Of a stretch of DNA of 64,000 nt, positions 3,281 to 28,177 are shown piece after piece. Each line of letters begins with the position of its first letter. Position 1 is the first letter of the stretch. The position numbers and the translations under genes were made by a program. The stretch comes from Minisyncoccota bacterium (GTDB lineage: Bacteria > Patescibacteriota > Minisyncoccia > Phycocordibacterales > JBAYLF01), in contig JBAYLF010000005.1 of the NCBI GenBank assembly GCA_041664205.1, positions 7,063-71,062 on the forward strand, in the 5' to 3' direction. The notes under the pieces are model-generated. The model was not told the DNA's origin, did no database searches, and saw nothing but the letters and a program-made list of their open reading frames with translations.

Positions 3281-3303
3281 ATTAAAATCAGAGACAAAAA
3301 ATC

Positions 3304-3339
3304 AAAGCCTAACTCATAGAGTTAGGCTTTGTGTTGTTT
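3304..3339. terminator. Intrinsic terminator hairpin (AAAGCCTAACTC-ata-GAGTTAGGCTTT) with T-rich flanks on both strands
   Basis: Perfect 12-bp inverted repeat followed by GTGTTGTTT on the + strand. On the - strand it is followed by TTTGATTTTTTG. Confidence 0.6.
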
Positions 3340-3519: not shown

Positions 3520-3569
3520 AATTTTATCTATTGAAAAGCATACTATTTAAAAATAAAAATTACAATAAA

Positions 3570-3605
3570 AAATCGCCTTTTTATGTTAAGGCGATTTTCA
3601 TTTTA
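3570..3605. terminator. Bidirectional intrinsic terminator (AAATCGCCTT-loop-AAGGCGATTT) downstream of the Cys-rich repeat gene
   Basis: 10-bp inverted repeat 3570-3579/3589-3598 with T/A-rich flanks. It sits 12 nt past the stop of the minus-strand gene ending at 3610. Confidence 0.55.
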
Positions 3606-3609
3606 TCTG

Positions 3610-5697
3610 TTATTTGATGAGTAATAATGTTTTAAAAATATCTACTACCGAAGCTCCAAAGTTGTATAAAGTATTCATCGAAACTGGCGAAGTTGGTTCA
3701 GGTGGTGGAGGTGGTGTTTGAACTGGCGGAGCAGATTCCATCGGCATAGGAGGTGGTGGCTGCATCTGGGGTTGAGGTGATTGCATTAAGGTTGGGTTTG
3801 CAGGCATCATTTGGCCTTCACCTCCAGTGGTGCTATTTGATGGTGGTTGCATCATTTCTCCGGAAGATGGCATTGAGCCACCTCCAGTTGTTCCTTGTGG
3901 AGGTTGCTGGTACTGCTGGTAATTTTCTTGTGGTGGTTGCATTTGCGGACAATTTTCACCTTCGCATTTAATCATTGTTGTCGGAGGAACAGGCCCTCCA
4001 GAGCTTCCAGCAGGAGCTCCACAGTTTGTAGGATTTGACTCGCAGTATTTTTGGCACTCTTCAGGACTACTGCATCCACCTGGACCCTTCATTGTTTGCT
4101 GCATTTGATAACCACCGCTAGTACTACCAGATGTTCCTGGCGCCATTTGATTTTGGATATTTTGAGTTCCAAAGTTTTTGCATTCTTCCTGATTTGATTC
4201 ACAATATTTCTGACATTCTTCGGGGCTGCTACATCCGCCTGGGCCTTTCATCATTTGTGGTTGTTGATAGTTGCTGTTATTGCCAGGAGCTCCAGGCATA
4301 ATTTGATTTTGGCCATCACCTTGTGGTCTAAAATTGGCACACTCTTCTTTATTTGATTCGCAATATTTCTGACACTCTTCAGGACTGCTGCATCCACCCA
4401 GACCCTTCATCATTCCTCCATTAAAAGTAGAAGATCCATTACCTCCTTGTCCTGGAGGAGTCATATTTTGAAAGTTTTTCATATTTGATTCAAAACAAGT
4501 TCGTATTTTATCACCGATAGATTGGGTTGCAGGACCTGATCCACTTTTTAATTTATTCATAGCTTCAGTTCCGATTTGTGCTTCCAAACAAGTTAATACT
4601 TCTGGTGGAGCTTGTTTTAACGATTCGTTAAAACGTGCTGTTCCTTCCTCCATTCTTTTTAGATCTTCAGGACTTATTAATCCGTTCTCTTTTCCAAAAT
4701 CAAAGCATGTTTGTTGATTGTCAGGATTATTACAAAAGGCATCACATTCTTGTTTATTTTTGCACCCGCCAGGACCTTTACCTTTTGTTTTTTTGGCCAT
4801 AGTTGCTTCTTCTGGTGTCATAAATCCTGCAGCTTCGGCAAAAGCTGAACATTCGTCAAAATGTTCTTCAGCACCGCAATAAGCATCGCATGCTTCTTTT
4901 CCTTTGCAGTTTGGCATTTTAACTCCTTTTTTAATTGCCGCCAGTACTTTTTGAGAATCAGCTTTTTCTTGATCGCTCATAAAGCCTGCTTCTATGGCGA
5001 AGTTCATACAAACTTCCATATGTGATGAATCATTGCAGTATACATCGCAAGCTTCCTTGCCGTTGCATGGCGGAGGCACAGCACCTTTTTTAACTGCTGC
5101 GACCATTTTTTTAGCATCTTCAAGTTCTTTGCCTTGTATAAAACCTGCAGCTTCGCCAAAAGCGATACATGCTTCCATGTGACTCGAATCATTGCAGTAA
5201 GTATCACACTCTTTTTTGTTATTACATGGCAGAGGTTTTATGCCACTTGTTAGAGCTTTTTGAACTTTTTTTGCTTCTTCCAGTTGGTCTGGAGGCATTA
5301 TGTCATTTTTTTCAGCAAAGGAGACGCATTCATCAATATGGCTCATATCGTTGCAGTATTGCTCACAACTATTTTTATCCTTGCATCCACCTGGCCCCTT
5401 GTTGCCGGCAGCTTTAAATTTTTTTGCTACAGACAGATCTTCTTTGGACATAAGATTATTTTTTTCTGCAAAGTTTAAACATACTTCCATGTGAGCTGAA
5501 TTGTCGCAATATGTTTTGCACGCAGCTTTATCTTTGCAATTTCCCAGTTCTTTGACCGGATATTGAACGCTTTCTATTCCAGTAATTTCGGTGGTAGTTT
5601 GAGCAATAACAATATTTATGAAAAATGCTGATGCTATTGTTAAAAAACCAAGAGTAACTAATTTAGTTAAATTTTTTGTATTCATATTTTTATTCAA
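3610..5697 (-). CDS. Secreted Cys-rich tandem-repeat protein (695 aa): signal peptide, about 6 repeats of C-x5-C-x3-C-x6-H-x3-C, 3 repeats of GPGGCSSPEECQKYCESN, Pro/Gln-rich tail
   Basis: Long uninterrupted ORF. N-terminal hydrophobic signal LVTLGFLTIASAFFINIVIAQ. Repeat units about 53 aa (type A) and about 51 aa (type B) are visible in the translation and as near-identical DNA blocks. The C-terminus is PQPQMQPPPPMPMESAPPVQTPPPPPEP. Confidence 0.8.
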   Translation of the reverse strand: MNKNMNTKNLTKLVTLGFLTIASAFFINIVIAQTTTEITGIESVQYPVKELGNCKDKAACKTYCDNSAHMEVCLNFAEKNNLMSKEDLSVAKKFKAAGNKGPGGCKDKNSCEQYCNDMSHIDECVSFAEKNDIMPPDQLEEAKKVQKALTSGIKPLPCNNKKECDTYCNDSSHMEACIAFGEAAGFIQGKELEDAKKMVAAVKKGAVPPPCNGKEACDVYCNDSSHMEVCMNFAIEAGFMSDQEKADSQKVLAAIKKGVKMPNCKGKEACDAYCGAEEHFDECSAFAEAAGFMTPEEATMAKKTKGKGPGGCKNKQECDAFCNNPDNQQTCFDFGKENGLISPEDLKRMEEGTARFNESLKQAPPEVLTCLEAQIGTEAMNKLKSGSGPATQSIGDKIRTCFESNMKNFQNMTPPGQGGNGSSTFNGGMMKGLGGCSSPEECQKYCESNKEECANFRPQGDGQNQIMPGAPGNNSNYQQPQMMKGPGGCSSPEECQKYCESNQEECKNFGTQNIQNQMAPGTSGSTSGGYQMQQTMKGPGGCSSPEECQKYCESNPTNCGAPAGSSGGPVPPTTMIKCEGENCPQMQPPQENYQQYQQPPQGTTGGGSMPSSGEMMQPPSNSTTGGEGQMMPANPTLMQSPQPQMQPPPPMPMESAPPVQTPPPPPEPTSPVSMNTLYNFGASVVDIFKTLLLIK
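4030..4420. repeat. In-frame tandem repeats (about 153-nt period) encoding type-B modules MMKGPGGCSSPEECQKYCESN
   Basis: Near-identical DNA blocks around 4037-4090, 4181-4250 and 4335-4405. Confidence 0.65.
4587..5550. repeat. In-frame tandem repeats (about 159-nt period) encoding Cys/His-rich type-A modules of the secreted protein
   Basis: Recurrent blocks encoding C..K..C..YCNDSSHMEVC..FAE..GFM...AKK....KG. Confidence 0.6.
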
Positions 5698-5971
5698 AAG
5701 GATTAGTTTTTACATCTTTAAAAGGATTTGCTTTGTCAACCGGATTAATATCTGGCTTATTTTCAAGAGGGTTTGTTGTGACTGAAGGTAAAACTCCCTT
5801 TGAGGCCGAGTCAGTAATTACCTTAGCGGATTCACTTGCTGCTTTGTCAGCATTTTGTTCAATGTTGGTTTTGATATTATTTTTATTTACCAGATAAAAA
5901 TAAATTACGACCGAAAAAACTATAATTATTACAATAGCCACTGAGGAGATTGTAATCGATTTTTTGTTCAT
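5690..5971 (-). CDS. Small membrane-anchored hypothetical protein (93 aa). Its stop overlaps the start of the Cys-rich repeat gene by 8 nt.
   Basis: N-terminal TM helix ITISSVAIVIIIVFSVVIYFYLV. 8-nt overlap with the downstream gene suggests translational coupling. Confidence 0.5.
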   Translation of the reverse strand: MNKKSITISSVAIVIIIVFSVVIYFYLVNKNNIKTNIEQNADKAASESAKVITDSASKGVLPSVTTNPLENKPDINPVDKANPFKDVKTNPFE

Positions 5972-6558: not shown

Positions 6559-6813
6559 CTAGATCAGAGGACTGGTGCTTGTCACTACTTTTCTGCCACA
6601 TGAACAGCCATAAAGATTATGGTTTGTTCTGATGCCGTTGGTTTTAGTATACTCGGGACCGTATTTTTCGTTCCACTCTTCGTGTTCGAATTCGTGTTGA
6701 TGCATCGGATCTCCGGCTTCAACCACGTTACCTTTCAATATATCAGGTGTTTCTTTTGGCATATTTTTATTTCTGCTGTTAAATAAATTATAGTATATAT
6801 GTATGTTTGTCAA
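6559..6813 (-). CDS. Small hypothetical protein (84 aa, or 67 aa from the internal Met at 6762)
   Basis: Supported only as an ORF between a terminator and a promoter-like AT-rich region. Sequence ...HEFEHEEWNEKYGPEYTKTNGIRTNHNLYGCSCGRK. No recognisable family. Confidence 0.3.
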   Translation of the reverse strand: MTNIHIYYNLFNSRNKNMPKETPDILKGNVVEAGDPMHQHEFEHEEWNEKYGPEYTKTNGIRTNHNLYGCSCGRKVVTSTSPLI

Positions 6814-6885: not shown

Positions 6886-7800
6886 ATGTTTTGGAAAAGA
6901 AAAAAGTCTCTTAAAGTTGTTACTCACTGTGGCGGATTTCACGCGGACGATGTGTTTGCAACAGCTACACTATTTATAGTTTTTGGAGAGGATAATATTG
7001 AGGTTATCCGAACACGTGATCCTGAGATCATAAAAAATGCGAACATTGTTTTTGATGTTGGTCATATATACGATGTTGAAAAAAATCGTTTCGATCATCA
7101 TCAAGGAGGAGATGACTTAATGAGAAAAAATGGAATTCCTTATGCATCATTTGGTTTGGTTTGGAAAAATTTTGCTTCCAGAATCATTCCTCATCAAGAA
7201 ATAATAGACGCTATCGATAAAAATCTGGTTCAGCCCGTAGACGCAGGAGACAACGGTGTTGTTATTGCAAAAAGTCTGTTTGACGAAATCACGGAGTATG
7301 AAATTTCAGATGTTATAGAAGCTTTTAATAACACTTGGAAAGAAAAGCACTACGATCTAGATAAAGAATTTTTAAATATGGTTCACTTTGCTAAACAACT
7401 CTTGGAAAGGGAAATCGCTCACGAAAGTTCGAAATTTGAAGCTTATCAAATTGTCCAAAAGATTTATAACGAAACTTCTGATAAAAGAATTATAATTTTA
7501 GATCATTATTATCCTTGGAAAAATTTTATTACAAAATGTCCAGAACCTCTTTTTGTTATCGCTCCTTATTTTGAAAATTATGGTGTTCATGCCGTTCCTG
7601 TGGAAGAAAAAAGTTTTGATACAAGAGTAAAAATGCCTGTAGAATGGGGTGGAAAAGAAAAAGAAGAGTTAGCTTTGGCATCAGGTATTCCTGACGCTAT
7701 TTTTTGTCATAAAGGTAGGCATTTTGCTGTTGTAGAAACTAAAGAAGGCGCATTGGAAATGGCAAAAAAAGCGATACAAGCAATTGACGGAAGTTATTAA
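6886..7800 (+). CDS. MYG1/UPF0160 family metal-dependent protein hydrolase
   Basis: N-terminal VVTHCGGFHADDVFATATL and DHHQGG resemble the MYG1 HxGxFHxDE and DHHQ signatures. Confidence 0.7.
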   Translation: MFWKRKKSLKVVTHCGGFHADDVFATATLFIVFGEDNIEVIRTRDPEIIKNANIVFDVGHIYDVEKNRFDHHQGGDDLMRKNGIPYASFGLVWKNFASRIIPHQEIIDAIDKNLVQPVDAGDNGVVIAKSLFDEITEYEISDVIEAFNNTWKEKHYDLDKEFLNMVHFAKQLLEREIAHESSKFEAYQIVQKIYNETSDKRIIILDHYYPWKNFITKCPEPLFVIAPYFENYGVHAVPVEEKSFDTRVKMPVEWGGKEKEELALASGIPDAIFCHKGRHFAVVETKEGALEMAKKAIQAIDGSY

Positions 7801-19035: not shown

Positions 19036-19716
19036 ATGATATATTTCGACAAAGTATCAAAAATTTATCCTGACGGTTCAACTGCGCTTGAAGACGTGAG
19101 TTTTACTATCGAACCGGAAGAATTTGTATCTATAGTTGGGCACTCTGGCGCTGGAAAGACAACTCTTATAAAGATGCTTCTTGCAGAAGAAAAACCGTCA
19201 TCAGGCGGAGTCTTTTTTGAATCAGTTGATGTTCACGATTTGAAAAATAAAGAAATAAATAATCTTCGTAGGCGCATCGGCACCGTATTTCAGGATTTTA
19301 AATTATTACCGCACAAAACAGCTTATGAAAATATTGCCTTTGCTATGGAAGTTGCAGGAAAGACCGAAGAAGAAATAGCCGCAGATGTTCCACATGTTCT
19401 TGATTTAGTTGATCTTGGAGATAAAATGCTAAATTTCCCTCATCAACTTTCTGGTGGAGAGAAGCAACGAGTTGCAATCGCACGTGCTATCGTCAATCAT
19501 CCAGATATTGTCATTGCAGACGAACCAACTGGAAACTTAGATCCTGTAAATACTCAAGATGTAATCAGATTGCTAAAAAAAATAAACGATCTTGGAACAA
19601 CAGTTATTTTAACTACTCACAACAAGGGCGTGATCGACTCTCTTGGCAAACGAGTGGTTACTATTGAAAAAGGAAAAGTTGTTAGAGATGATAAAAAGGG
19701 TCATTACATTTTATAA
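19036..19716 (+). CDS. ftsE: Cell division ABC ATPase FtsE
   Basis: Walker A GHSGAGKTT. ABC signature LSGGEKQRVAIARA. 226 aa, upstream of ftsX. Confidence 0.9.
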   Translation: MIYFDKVSKIYPDGSTALEDVSFTIEPEEFVSIVGHSGAGKTTLIKMLLAEEKPSSGGVFFESVDVHDLKNKEINNLRRRIGTVFQDFKLLPHKTAYENIAFAMEVAGKTEEEIAADVPHVLDLVDLGDKMLNFPHQLSGGEKQRVAIARAIVNHPDIVIADEPTGNLDPVNTQDVIRLLKKINDLGTTVILTTHNKGVIDSLGKRVVTIEKGKVVRDDKKGHYIL

Positions 19717-19736: not shown

Positions 19737-20663
19737 ATGCTTTGGGTAAAAATAAAACGTGGTATAAAATCTGGTCTAATAAGCTTTTTACGTAATGGCT
19801 ATGTATCATTGGCAGCTATACTCATAATGGTTATTACTCTTTTTATGATCAGCGGTATCATATTTGCTAAAGCCACATTTGAATCAACCCTCGATGTAGT
19901 AAAAAATAAAGTTGACATAAACATATATTTTATTCCTGAAGCGCCTGAAGATGATATTATCGCAATTAAAAAACAAATAGAAAATTTACCAGAAGTTTCT
20001 AAAGTAGATTACATTTCTCGCCAAGATGTTTTAGACAATTTCAAAACAGCTCACGCAGATGACGAGACCAACCTACAGGCTCTTCAAGAGCTTCCAGATA
20101 ATCCATTTGGAGCAAGGCTCAATATAAAAGCCAAAGAGCCTTCACAATATGCAGGAGTTGCCACTTTCTTGGAAAATCAGCATCTTCTATCGAAAGATGG
20201 AATACCGATAGTTGAAAAAGTAAATTACCAAAAAAATAAGCTCGTTATTGACAGACTATCTAACTTCATTAATTCCGCCGATAGAATAGGATACTTTCTA
20301 ACTCTTTTATTTATCATTGTTTCAATAGCTATTACTTTCAACACTATCCGACTCGCCATTTTTATTTCTAAGGACGAAATCGCAGTTATGAAGCTTGTGG
20401 GGGCTAGCAATAGATATATCAGATGGCCTTTTGTTGTGAGTGGTGTGGTGTATGGCTTTCTATCAGCACTCATAGTTCTTATTCTGCTTTATCCGATTAC
20501 ATTCTGGCTGGGGCCCAAGACGCAGGACTTTTTTGCAGGTATGAATGTATTTAAGTATTACGCTTCAAATTTTGGACAAATCTTTCTTATACTAATGAGC
20601 TCTGGAATCTTTATAGGAGCCATCTCAAGTTATCTAGCAGTTAGAAAACATCTAAAGGTCTAA
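19737..20663 (+). CDS. ftsX: Cell division permease-like protein FtsX
   Basis: Four-TM FtsX topology with a large first extracellular loop. Immediately downstream of ftsE. Confidence 0.85.
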   Translation: MLWVKIKRGIKSGLISFLRNGYVSLAAILIMVITLFMISGIIFAKATFESTLDVVKNKVDINIYFIPEAPEDDIIAIKKQIENLPEVSKVDYISRQDVLDNFKTAHADDETNLQALQELPDNPFGARLNIKAKEPSQYAGVATFLENQHLLSKDGIPIVEKVNYQKNKLVIDRLSNFINSADRIGYFLTLLFIIVSIAITFNTIRLAIFISKDEIAVMKLVGASNRYIRWPFVVSGVVYGFLSALIVLILLYPITFWLGPKTQDFFAGMNVFKYYASNFGQIFLILMSSGIFIGAISSYLAVRKHLKV

Positions 20664-25777: not shown

Positions 25778-28177
25778 TTATTTTGAATTTACTCGCATGC
25801 AATAGAAACTTCTCCAAACGAATACAAGTGCGACTGCAAATAGGAGCGTGCCTACATAAGGAGCGATTGAACGGAATCCTTCAGAGATTGTTATTTCCAT
25901 CGCCAAAAGTCCGAATAGCGTGGTGAATTTAATGATAGGGTTTAGCGCGACGGAAGTTGTGTCTTTGAATGGATCTCCGACAGTGTCGCCGACTACTGTG
26001 GCATTGTGCAAAGGAGTTCCTTTTTCTTTTAGATCTACTTCAACTACTTTCTTTGCATTGTCCCATGCGCCTCCTGCGTTTGCCATAAAGATCGCTTGGA
26101 ATAATCCGAAGAATGCGATGCTCATGAGATAGCTTACGAAGAGCGCGATCGGCTGTGCGTTAGTTGCAGAAGGTGCTGACCAAAAAGCGAACGCGAGGGT
26201 AAATGTAAATAGCGCGACGAAAATATTTATCATTCCTTTTTGTGCGTATTGAGTGCAGATCTTTACAACTTCTTTTGATTTTTTTATCGATTCTTCCTGA
26301 TCCTGCTTTTCATCAAGGCTGATATTTTTTCTGATGTATTCAACTGCTCTGTATGCTCCCGCGGTTACTGCTTGGATAGATGCACCAGAGAACCAATATA
26401 TAACTGCACCGCCCAAGAGCCATCCGAAGATTGTGAACGGATTTAGAAGGTTCAAGATAGTTTCTGGTTCTACTCCAAGTTTATTTTTTATCAAGATGAT
26501 CAAAGAGAAGATCATTGTTGTTGTTCCTGCGACGGCTGTGCCGATGAGCACTGGCTTTGCTGTGGCTTTGAAAGTGTTTCCTGCACCGTCGTTTGCTTCA
26601 AGATAATATTTTGCCTTTTCAAAGTCTGGTTTGAAGCCGAATTCTTTTTCGATGTCATATGTTGCTTTGCTGATATTGTTTTCTATGCCAGATAATTCGT
26701 AGACGCTTTGTGCGTTGTCTGTTATTGGTCCATAGCTATCAACGGCGATTGTAACTGGTCCCATACTTAAGAATCCGAAAGCGATCAATCCGAAGGCGAA
26801 GACAACAGGGTAGATCATGAAAGTCGCGAGTCCGAAAGTGCTTGCGTAGAATGCTGTAAACATAAGGCCGAAAAATACTAAACCGTTCCAGAATGCGCTG
26901 AAGTTACCAGCGACTAATCCGGAAAGAATTGTAAGAGATGCTCCGCCTTCACGGGAGGCCTCAACTACTTCTTTAACATGTTTTGATTTTGGACTTGTGA
27001 AAATCTTTGTTACTTCTGGAATAATTGCTGCTCCTAATGTTCCACAGCTTATTATTATTGAGAGCACAAACCAAAGATTATTTGGTAAGGCTCCAAGAAG
27101 CATTTTGCTGACGATGAAAGTCACAATGATAGAAAAGATTGAGGTAAGCCAAACGAGATTTGTTAGAGGCTTTTCAAAATCAAGGTCGTCAGTTTTTCCA
27201 TAAAGAACTTTGCTTAATCCATTGTTCAGCCAGAATGATGAAATAGATGTGATGACCATGAGTATTCTCATAACGAAAATCCATGTAATTAATTCTGCTT
27301 GGTATTGTGGAATTACTGCTAGAACGATGAAGCTGATAAGCGCTACAGCTGTTACTCCGTAAGTTTCAAAACCGTCTGCTGTAGGTCCGACGCTGTCTCC
27401 TGCGTTGTCTCCTGTGCAGTCTGCAATAACTCCTGGGTTTCTTGGATCGTCCTCTTTAATCTTCAAGAAAATTTTCATTAAGTCTGATCCGATGTCGGCG
27501 ATCTTTGTGAAGATGCCTCCGCAGATTCTAAGGACGCTCGCGCCTAATGATTCACCGATAGCAAAACCTATGAAGCATGCGCCGGCAAATTCTTTTGGAA
27601 TGTAATTAAGAATGAAAAGCATCAAGAAGAGTTCAACAGAAACAAGAAGAACTCCGATAGCCATTCCTGAACGTAGGGGAATGTTTAGGAGCTTCAAAGG
27701 TTTTCTTTCAAGTGATGAAAATGCCATTCTGCTGTTTGCGAGAGTATTTACTCTGATGCCGAACCAAGCGACTCCGTATGAGCCGAGAATTCCGATAGTT
27801 GTCCAAGACAATATCAAAGCTACTCCTTTTAGTCCGACTGATTGGAGGTATCCAAAATAGAAGCCAATGAATATTGCAATCAAAACAAAAAGTGAAAGGA
27901 TAAGTTTACCTTGCTGAATAAGATAAGTTTTGCATGTCTCAAAAATAATTTTGGAAACATCGCCCATAGATTCGTGAGTTGGCATTTTTTTAACCTTGAG
28001 GTATTGGTAGACGCCAAAGATAATTCCCAAGATACACACTACAAAACCGATCTTAAATAGGTTTTGCTGGCCACTAGATAGGTCAGGTATCTTTAAGTCG
28101 GCTTCGCTCGCGAGAGCGGTATTAAAGGAGGTTAATAAAAGAAAGAGTGTGAAAAACAATTTTGTTATGATTTTCAT
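25778..28177 (-). CDS. hppA: Membrane-bound proton-translocating pyrophosphatase (H+-PPase)
   Basis: ANAGGAWDNAKK and DCTGDNAGDSVGP signatures. 799 aa polytopic. Confidence 0.9.
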   Translation of the reverse strand: MKIITKLFFTLFLLLTSFNTALASEADLKIPDLSSGQQNLFKIGFVVCILGIIFGVYQYLKVKKMPTHESMGDVSKIIFETCKTYLIQQGKLILSLFVLIAIFIGFYFGYLQSVGLKGVALILSWTTIGILGSYGVAWFGIRVNTLANSRMAFSSLERKPLKLLNIPLRSGMAIGVLLVSVELFLMLFILNYIPKEFAGACFIGFAIGESLGASVLRICGGIFTKIADIGSDLMKIFLKIKEDDPRNPGVIADCTGDNAGDSVGPTADGFETYGVTAVALISFIVLAVIPQYQAELITWIFVMRILMVITSISSFWLNNGLSKVLYGKTDDLDFEKPLTNLVWLTSIFSIIVTFIVSKMLLGALPNNLWFVLSIIISCGTLGAAIIPEVTKIFTSPKSKHVKEVVEASREGGASLTILSGLVAGNFSAFWNGLVFFGLMFTAFYASTFGLATFMIYPVVFAFGLIAFGFLSMGPVTIAVDSYGPITDNAQSVYELSGIENNISKATYDIEKEFGFKPDFEKAKYYLEANDGAGNTFKATAKPVLIGTAVAGTTTMIFSLIILIKNKLGVEPETILNLLNPFTIFGWLLGGAVIYWFSGASIQAVTAGAYRAVEYIRKNISLDEKQDQEESIKKSKEVVKICTQYAQKGMINIFVALFTFTLAFAFWSAPSATNAQPIALFVSYLMSIAFFGLFQAIFMANAGGAWDNAKKVVEVDLKEKGTPLHNATVVGDTVGDPFKDTTSVALNPIIKFTTLFGLLAMEITISEGFRSIAPYVGTLLFAVALVFVWRSFYCMRVNSK

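Follow-up and report, generated by a model that had tools for sequence, protein, structure and literature searches.

Secreted scaffolds of disulfide-stapled helical repeats are already known as a general kind from Helicobacter, where HcpA-E and Sel1-like proteins consist of tandem α-helical repeats, cross-linked by disulfides, that form a solenoid-like scaffold. Here we describe a gene pair in a 64,000-nucleotide (nt) stretch of contig JBAYLF010000005.1 (assembly GCA_041664205.1, a Minisyncoccota bacterium; positions 7,063 to 71,062), which we refer to as the window. The larger gene encodes a 695-amino-acid (aa) protein of cysteine-rich repeats (the Cys-repeat protein), which we read as likewise an exported helical-repeat, Cys-stapled scaffold; the smaller, directly upstream, encodes a 93-aa single-pass membrane protein (the partner). 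Neither the family nor its module or partner is represented in Pfam, NCBIfam, the PDB or the literature searched. We propose, with moderate confidence, that the large protein is a disulfide-stapled helical-repeat surface scaffold that docks on the NPF-containing tail of its membrane anchor, and that the two form a lineage-wide cassette of the Parcubacteria/Paceibacteria.

A large part of bacterial diversity belongs to the Parcubacteria, yet almost nothing is known of the surface of their cells or of how they meet their hosts. A gene pair that is present in at least hundreds of species, and is conserved like cell-division genes, is therefore a concrete candidate for a core component of the envelope. 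It also supplies two units for the domain databases, namely a four-Cys three-helix module and a partner with an NPF tail.

Pairing of the two genes

The tie between the two proteins is supported by the genomic neighbourhoods of their homologs. At four loci, reached via identical proteins, the sole conserved neighbour of the repeat gene is a gene of 89-104 aa directly upstream, the products of which are 41-53% identical in alignment; the genes flanking the pair are otherwise not conserved. Across the 81 assessable loci, which are those with a complete large open reading frame (ORF), an upstream ORF that ends in the NPF motif was found at 73 by scan and at seven more upon manual re-inspection (80/81), and the one remaining locus has an upstream sequence of 94 nt only. 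The partner also lies directly upstream in two divergent variants of the large protein, one with a lectin domain (P0185) and one of 1,555 aa (P0173), and its presence in both argues that the pairing follows the N-terminal array that they share, not the C-terminal half. This bears out an initial annotation of this DNA, in which a small membrane protein had been tied to a secreted repeat protein rich in Cys.

The partner, correctly recognized at that stage as a 93-aa transmembrane (TM) protein, has basic residues and then a TM helix at its N-terminus, followed by a variable linker and by a conserved, Cys-free C-terminal peptide. From the KK that stands before the helix in the window's partner, the predicted topology is N-in/C-out. 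Among 69 distinct homologs, the peptide has the consensus SATxGVLPSxxxNPLENKPDxNPxxKANPFKxIKTNPFx, and each protein carries three to five NP motifs, always at the extreme C-terminus. In the alignment of the products that are 41-53% identical, the invariant columns are G59, L61, P62, N67, P68, D74, N76, P77, N82, P83, K88, N90, P91 and F92. Scanning the partner against Pfam and NCBIfam returned sub-threshold noise only, confined to the TM region and including the NCBIfam entries FliL and SAG1386, both far below the cut-off. One partner homolog (P0138) is named 'flagellar basal body-associated protein FliL' by its source, probably an annotation artefact.

Architecture of the Cys-repeat protein

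The large protein opens with a predicted Sec signal, with an N-terminal hydrophobicity of 2.32, in which neither a twin-arginine motif nor a lipobox Cys is present. The architecture of the family is fixed and runs, in order, from a signal peptide ending '..AQ' (a boundary kept in most homologs) through a cap, IQYPVxELGNC, six long modules, a central two-Cys domain, zero to three short modules and a Pro/Gln-rich region to a C-terminal helix. The 24 Cys of the long modules and the two of the central domain are invariant across 118 sequences, and the total number of Cys, 40 in the window protein, is even in 112 of the best 120 of more than 2,073 homologs (E ≤ 1e-3), the set to which all counts out of 120 refer. 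In the window protein, the first Cys of each long module falls at aa 54, 105, 158, 211, 264 and 312, and that of each short module at aa 436, 489 and 542, the latter recurring at exactly 53 aa (159 nt). Both kinds are one and the same knot, which in the short modules lacks the third helix, such that a single module family occurs in two lengths.

These Cys positions confirm the long repeats of ~53 aa, put at about six by the initial annotation, and its three short modules stand as well, although not their period of ~51 aa; the Pro/Gln-rich tail and the hydrophobic C-terminus were also correctly described. The Cys spacing was not: in place of C-x5-C-x3-C-x6-H-x3-C, the long modules have C-x5-C-x3-C-x8-C, with the His inside the last interval as C-x4-H-x3-C (position C3+5). 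Nor does the fixed Cys/His metal site suggested on that basis survive comparison across the family. Across 106 homologs, modules 2, 3 and 5 carry His at position C3+5 and modules 1, 4 and 6 carry Asn, and the His pattern had seemed fixed because the window protein carries His in modules 1 and 4 too. Acidic residues are conserved beside the Cys, with D/E after C2 and EE before C4.

A C-terminal tail similar to that of the window protein is found in 90/120 homologs, its uncharged run being mostly 7-17 aa long and its last residue usually R or K. No other ORF in the window was found to have such a tail, and a general C-terminal sorting signal was ruled out, the tail being unique to this ORF within the window.

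AlphaFold2, supplied with 118 sequences, predicts residues 40-410 as all α-helical, with three helices per module, at a predicted local distance difference test (pLDDT) score above 90. The helices of the central domain (361-408) are predicted at pLDDT 83-95 and the cores of the short modules as small helices at 83-93, with the linkers and the tail disordered. One lone long module, the modelling of which had been suggested as a check in the initial annotation, yields the same three helices at pLDDT 86.7. In the helix register of these models, C2 and C3 stand four residues apart on helix 1, C4 lies in the middle of helix 2, and C1 is in the preceding loop.

The possibility raised at the outset, that the module matches a known characterised domain, was pursued in Pfam, NCBIfam, the PDB and Foldseek, and no such match was found. 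Foldseek against the PDB gives nothing significant, the full-length model reaching E = 1.1 at best and the single module E = 2.6, and a PDB sequence search with either the single protein or the 118-sequence profile returns nothing at E ≤ 10. The Pfam scan of the Cys-repeat protein at E ≤ 1 contains only a noise match to ssDBP, with no Sel1 or TPR, and the NCBIfam scan contains sub-threshold noise only, with no match to a C-terminal sorting domain. We found no description of the family in the literature on cysteine-rich proteins of the Parcubacteria or the candidate phyla radiation (CPR), and an mBio metatranscriptome paper makes no mention of it.

Distribution and conservation of the family

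The best 120 homologs are 45-63% identical to the window protein and have lengths of 410-735 aa. In the precomputed Pfam field, no domain is recorded for any of them, and almost all bear the name 'hypothetical'. Their source names belong to the Patescibacteria, including Paceibacterota, Azambacteria, Jorgensenbacteria, Portnoybacteria and Liptonbacteria. Two peptide patterns, searched for in a single genome from each GTDB species, place the family locus in at least 369 species representatives, a lower bound, and add the Nealson-, Staskawicz-, Yanofsky-, Gribaldo-, Taylor-, Nomura-, Niyogi- and Magasanikbacteria. The search for the module in other genomes, also suggested initially, was made with a single-module profile against 1.84 billion cluster representatives (50% identity) and finds 1,839 clusters at E ≤ 1e-3, 994 of them at E ≤ 1e-30. 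Where a lineage is named in the species scan, it is Patescibacteria/Parcubacteria, except for a few odd labels. Some metagenome-assembled genomes (MAGs) carrying the cassette are labelled Gammaproteobacteria, Aenigmatarchaeota, Omnitrophica or 'uncultured Candidatus Saccharibacteria' (L045, L064, L085, P0124 and many 'binchicken' MAGs); these labels outside the Parcubacteria are probably placeholder names or mis-binned contigs and not true occurrences.

The window protein is a full member of this family, aligning over its full length and having every invariant column as well as the NPF-tail partner. The constraint on the repeat protein is comparable to that on housekeeping genes: its median identity is 51.6%, versus 44.4% for flanking housekeeping orthologs from the same genome pairs (28 flanking-ortholog pairs, a small and non-independent sample). 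For the ORF at 19036-19716, which we take to be FtsE, orthologs are 53-59% identical, and for that at 19737-20663, which we take to be FtsX, 28-35%. Conservation at this level speaks against a host-specific adhesin that evolves quickly and in favor of a core function.

Several relatives carry additional domains. A C-terminal Laminin_G_3 (ConA-like lectin) domain occurs in three of them, namely L087 (P0185), P0261 and P0285, with P0185 and P0261 also having an added N-terminal domain. Kazal-like matches are seen in P0181 and P0272, and the 1,555-aa relative, L088 (P0173), has a Cys/Pro/Thr-rich extension of ~1,000 aa.

Divergence of the repeat DNA

The initial annotation had described the repeats as nearly identical in their DNA, and from this it suggested recent expansion or contraction with phase or length variation. 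The sequence contradicts both. Tandem Repeats Finder reports no tandem array at the DNA level. The long modules are pairwise only 45-61% identical in nucleotides and 25-52% in amino acids, the short modules are 48-59% identical in nucleotides across their 159-nt period, and the longest exact nucleotide match for any pair of modules is 14 nt. Even in the 63-nt cores of the short modules, which are 76-84% identical in nucleotides, 5-13 of the 19-20 identical residues are specified by different codons. Because the module DNA has diverged to this extent, the repeat region offers no substrate for slipped-strand variation or for assembly collapse.

The number of long modules, moreover, is six in 106/120 homologs, five in 8 and seven in 6, and that of the short modules ranges from 0 to 3. 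The long modules are thus old paralogs fixed in number at six in those 106 homologs, and the repetition at the protein level is ancient, not recent. Among near-identical strains, most length differences lie in the tail. The window protein's own 90% cluster has two members that differ in start call alone, and the complete members of other 90% clusters are set apart by indels of 3-18 aa within the Pro/Gln-rich tail. In one 90% cluster of Harrisonbacteria type, P0118 and P0321 are separated by an exact 53-aa insertion, giving eight long modules versus seven. This is the only whole-module difference among the near-identical strains compared, and either a real allele or a difference in assembly could explain it. 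Changes of a whole module thus occur, although rarely, and none was seen in the lineage of the window. An assembly artefact, the other explanation allowed for at first, was ruled out: contigs of 218 kb and 75 kb, obtained independently, encode the identical protein, and the homologs found in many MAGs keep their module counts.

Organization of the locus

The features of the pair are collected in Table 1. The 695-aa frame reported initially is confirmed from a TTG start and is the JGI call; an alternative in-frame ATG at 5685 gives the 691-aa form called by NCBI as WCW87_02770 in a Candidatus Paceibacterota MAG, and it is with this ATG that the N-termini of homologs line up. The 8-nt overlap with the partner ORF that had been noted holds for the TTG start only, the ATG leaving a 4-nt gap. 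No minus-strand terminator-like site was found between the partner and the repeat gene. We read the two genes as an operon because of this overlap or gap and because a terminator is found only 3' of the large gene, where the hairpin marks the end of the two-gene unit.

Table 1. Coordinates of the gene pair and its features within the window
Feature	Position	Strand	Description
Cys-repeat protein gene	3610..5697	-	695 aa from TTG at 5697; stop codon at 3610-3612; from the ORF list
Predicted Sec signal peptide	5602..5685	-	MNTKNLTK, then a 20-residue hydrophobic core ending VIA|Q; read from sequence
Six long modules	4621..5553	-	~53 aa each, C-x5-C-x3-C-x8-C then helices; three helices per module
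Central non-repeat helical domain	4450..4620	-	Two invariant Cys, aa 370 and 401 (695-aa numbering), i.e. C366 and C397 (691-aa numbering)
Three short modules	4021..4410	-	GPGGCSSPEECQKYCESNxEEC, C-x5-C-x3-C-x6-C; Gly/Pro/Gln-rich linkers between
Conserved C-x-G-E-N-C pair	3949..3966	-	aa 578-583; family consensus has 'PCxGENC'
Pro/Gln/Gly-rich low-complexity spacer	3679..4020	-	From composition; predicted disordered, pLDDT <50
C-terminal hydrophobic/amphipathic helix	3613..3678	-	MNTLYNFGASVVDIFKTLLLIK; predicted helix 672-689
Small partner gene	5690..5971	-	Single-pass membrane protein, 93 aa; ORF; NCBI WCW87_02775
Partner N-terminal TM/signal-anchor helix	5888..5956	-	aa 6-28, preceded by KK; read from sequence
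Partner conserved C-terminal peptide	5693..5797	-	GVLPSVTTNPLENKPDINPVDKANPFKDVKTNPFE; four NP motifs, ends the protein; proposed docking ligand
Intrinsic-terminator-like hairpin and T-run	3568..3599	-	12-pair stem, directly 3' of the repeat gene

Around the pair, the window holds housekeeping genes unrelated to it (dCMP deaminase, Maf, NUDIX and MYG1), and neither paralogs nor a Dsb-like CxxC protein were found within the window. Two separate hairpin terminators, at 3303-3331 (+) and at 3568-3599, lie in the 330 nt that separate the repeat gene from the convergent Maf gene, and the latter hairpin reads as a terminator on both strands. Between NUDIX and MYG1 lies an 84-aa ORF (6559-6813, minus strand), without a Pfam match and containing a His/Glu-rich stretch, HQHEFEHEEW. 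Farther along the window, a 799-aa ORF (25778-28177, minus strand) is hydrophobic at its N-terminus and carries, at its C-terminus, a TM-like segment with a basic tail (...VALVFVWRSFYCMRVNSK), features by which it may be another surface-anchored protein.

Discussion

In the model that we favor, the large protein would be exported by Sec, and its first ~370 mature residues would fold outside the cell into a rigid, all-α array of six three-helix modules plus the central helical domain. Each module would be stapled by its four invariant Cys, most likely as two disulfides, C1-C3 and C2-C4, a pairing suggested by the helix register, and the oxidative folding machinery of MdbA/VKOR type present in CPR bacteria would form them. 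The variable C-terminal half, with its zero to three mini-knots and Pro/Gln-rich spacer, and with lectin-like or Kazal-like domains in some relatives, would serve as a flexible, exposed extension ending in the short amphipathic helix. The small protein would be the single-pass membrane anchor, N-in and C-out, whose strictly C-terminal NP[LF]-repeat peptide would bind the conserved repeat array and so tether the scaffold to the membrane.

That the protein is exported and disulfide-stapled is suggested by a signal devoid of a twin-arginine motif or lipobox, by the even number of Cys in 112/120 homologs, by the extracellular-type domains of some relatives, and by the enrichment of CPR genomes for an MdbA-like thiol-disulfide oxidoreductase, often adjoining VKOR (10.1101/335083). 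Disulfide knots are, in our judgment, the most plausible reading of the Cys pattern, and we infer from the whole that the protein acts as a structural or ligand-presenting scaffold of the envelope. The putative docking of the NPF peptide on the array is put forward because a conserved rigid helical array coincides with an obligate membrane-anchored partner in which conservation is concentrated in a free C-terminal peptide.

Several points weigh against this reading. The docking is proposed by analogy with the binding of extended peptides by helical-repeat scaffolds, and the Foldseek matches to peptide-binding helical repeats (TPR, PPR, Rap, AlgK and CID) all have E > 1, are unspecific, and do not count as evidence. 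The C-terminal helix lacks the length and the apolar character of a canonical TM segment. Anoxic habitats are common among the Parcubacteria, and the Cys pair at i/i+4 could also contribute to a metal site. Finally, high conservation is what a core function would show, whichever that function is.

Four other explanations may be set beside this model. An extracellular metal-binding or storage protein, in which the four-Cys clusters, with or without His, would coordinate Zn, Cu(I) or Fe and the array would buffer or scavenge metals, would account for four invariant Cys per module at fixed spacing and for the conserved acidic residues beside them, and it would sit well with habitats that are often anoxic, where disulfides are harder to keep. 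We nevertheless consider it unlikely. The alternation of His with Asn from module to module leaves no invariant His-containing ligand set, a cofactor could not be pre-assembled given that there is no twin-arginine signal, and no metal-binding family is matched in Pfam, NCBIfam or the PDB; the even Cys count and the disulfide machinery encoded by CPR bacteria speak for oxidation instead, and the obligate NPF partner would be left unexplained. The level of conservation, for its part, would also suit a core physiological role as a carrier or scavenger of hydrophobic ligands or nutrients, its small, helical, Cys-stapled modules taking up lipids or host molecules that reduced bacteria cannot make, in the manner of saposins or plant lipid-transfer proteins. 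CPR bacteria depend on external lipids, which fits this idea. Yet there is no sequence or fold similarity to the saposin or lipid-transfer families, and the modules are predicted by AlphaFold2 to pack as one continuous array, not as separate bundles, such that we regard a carrier as quite improbable.

The adjacency of the genes, the small exported protein with its conservation concentrated in a C-terminal peptide, and the helical-repeat architecture of its larger neighbour would likewise be expected of a peptide-receptor signalling pair laid out like Rap/Phr of Firmicutes, the small protein being a pro-peptide whose released NPF peptide is sensed by the repeat protein. Here, however, the large protein is exported as well and lacks any output or DNA-binding domain, the conserved peptide of ~35 aa has no obvious processing site, and the Foldseek match to Rap (E = 4) is not significant; we find such a pair very unlikely. 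An adhesin that varies rapidly through expansion and contraction of near-identical repeats, or the mimicry of one by assembly collapse, could draw on the range of 0-3 short modules among species, on the one near-identical strain pair of another lineage that differs by a 53-aa module, and on the lectin-like domains of some relatives, which leave some support for the adhesin role first suggested for this protein. Against it stand the diverged module DNA, the six long modules in 106/120 homologs, the recovery of the identical protein from independent contigs, and conservation equal to that of housekeeping genes, which weakens any adhesin role. A 'phase-variable adhesin' is the wrong reading of this locus, and we assign the variable-repeat explanation, taken with assembly collapse, only a minimal chance of being correct.

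Returning to the anchored scaffold, a broader proposal may be made, although only tentatively and with low confidence. The pair may constitute an unrecognised, lineage-defining envelope complex of the Parcubacteria, in which a new disulfide-stapled three-helix repeat fold would recognize the free C-terminal NP[LF]-repeat peptide of its anchor and carry out a core extracellular task, such as organisation of the envelope or S-layer or the capture of host molecules, in place of machinery that these reduced bacteria lack.

Comparison with known systems

The Hcp and Sel1-like proteins, with which we began, are the same general kind of scaffold built from a different unit. Their repeats are of two helices, ~36 aa and one disulfide, whereas the present units have three helices, ~53 aa and four Cys, so that the Cys-repeat protein falls outside that family; it has neither a Pfam Sel1/TPR match nor a significant structural match, and it comes with a dedicated small partner gene, which the Hcp proteins are not known to have. 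The wall-spanning sortase substrates of Gram-positive bacteria likewise start with a signal peptide, continue with repeats and a Pro-rich spacer, and finish with a hydrophobic stretch closed by a basic residue, but the Cys-repeat protein contains no LPXTG or related motif, and its type of tail is short (a hydrophobic run of mostly 7-17 residues), amphipathic and closed by a single R or K, which sets it apart from that class. Phase-variable or contingency loci, in turn, need long, near-identical tandem DNA repeats, and the Cys-repeat gene, having none, is not one of them.

In gene layout the nearest parallel is the Rap/Phr (RNPP) system, in which the gene of a helical-repeat protein is also paired tightly with that of a small exported protein with a conserved C-terminal end. 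RNPP receptors, however, are cytoplasmic TPR proteins with regulatory outputs, and an exported, Cys-rich protein without a TPR signature does not belong among them. The TPR, armadillo and CID-type domains are, for their part, cytoplasmic and lack disulfides, and with Foldseek values of E > 1 the resemblance to them would be one of function and not of homology. They are all-α repeat arrays nonetheless, and their classic function, the binding of extended peptides and free C-termini, is the one that we propose for the Cys-repeat protein and the NPF tail of its partner.

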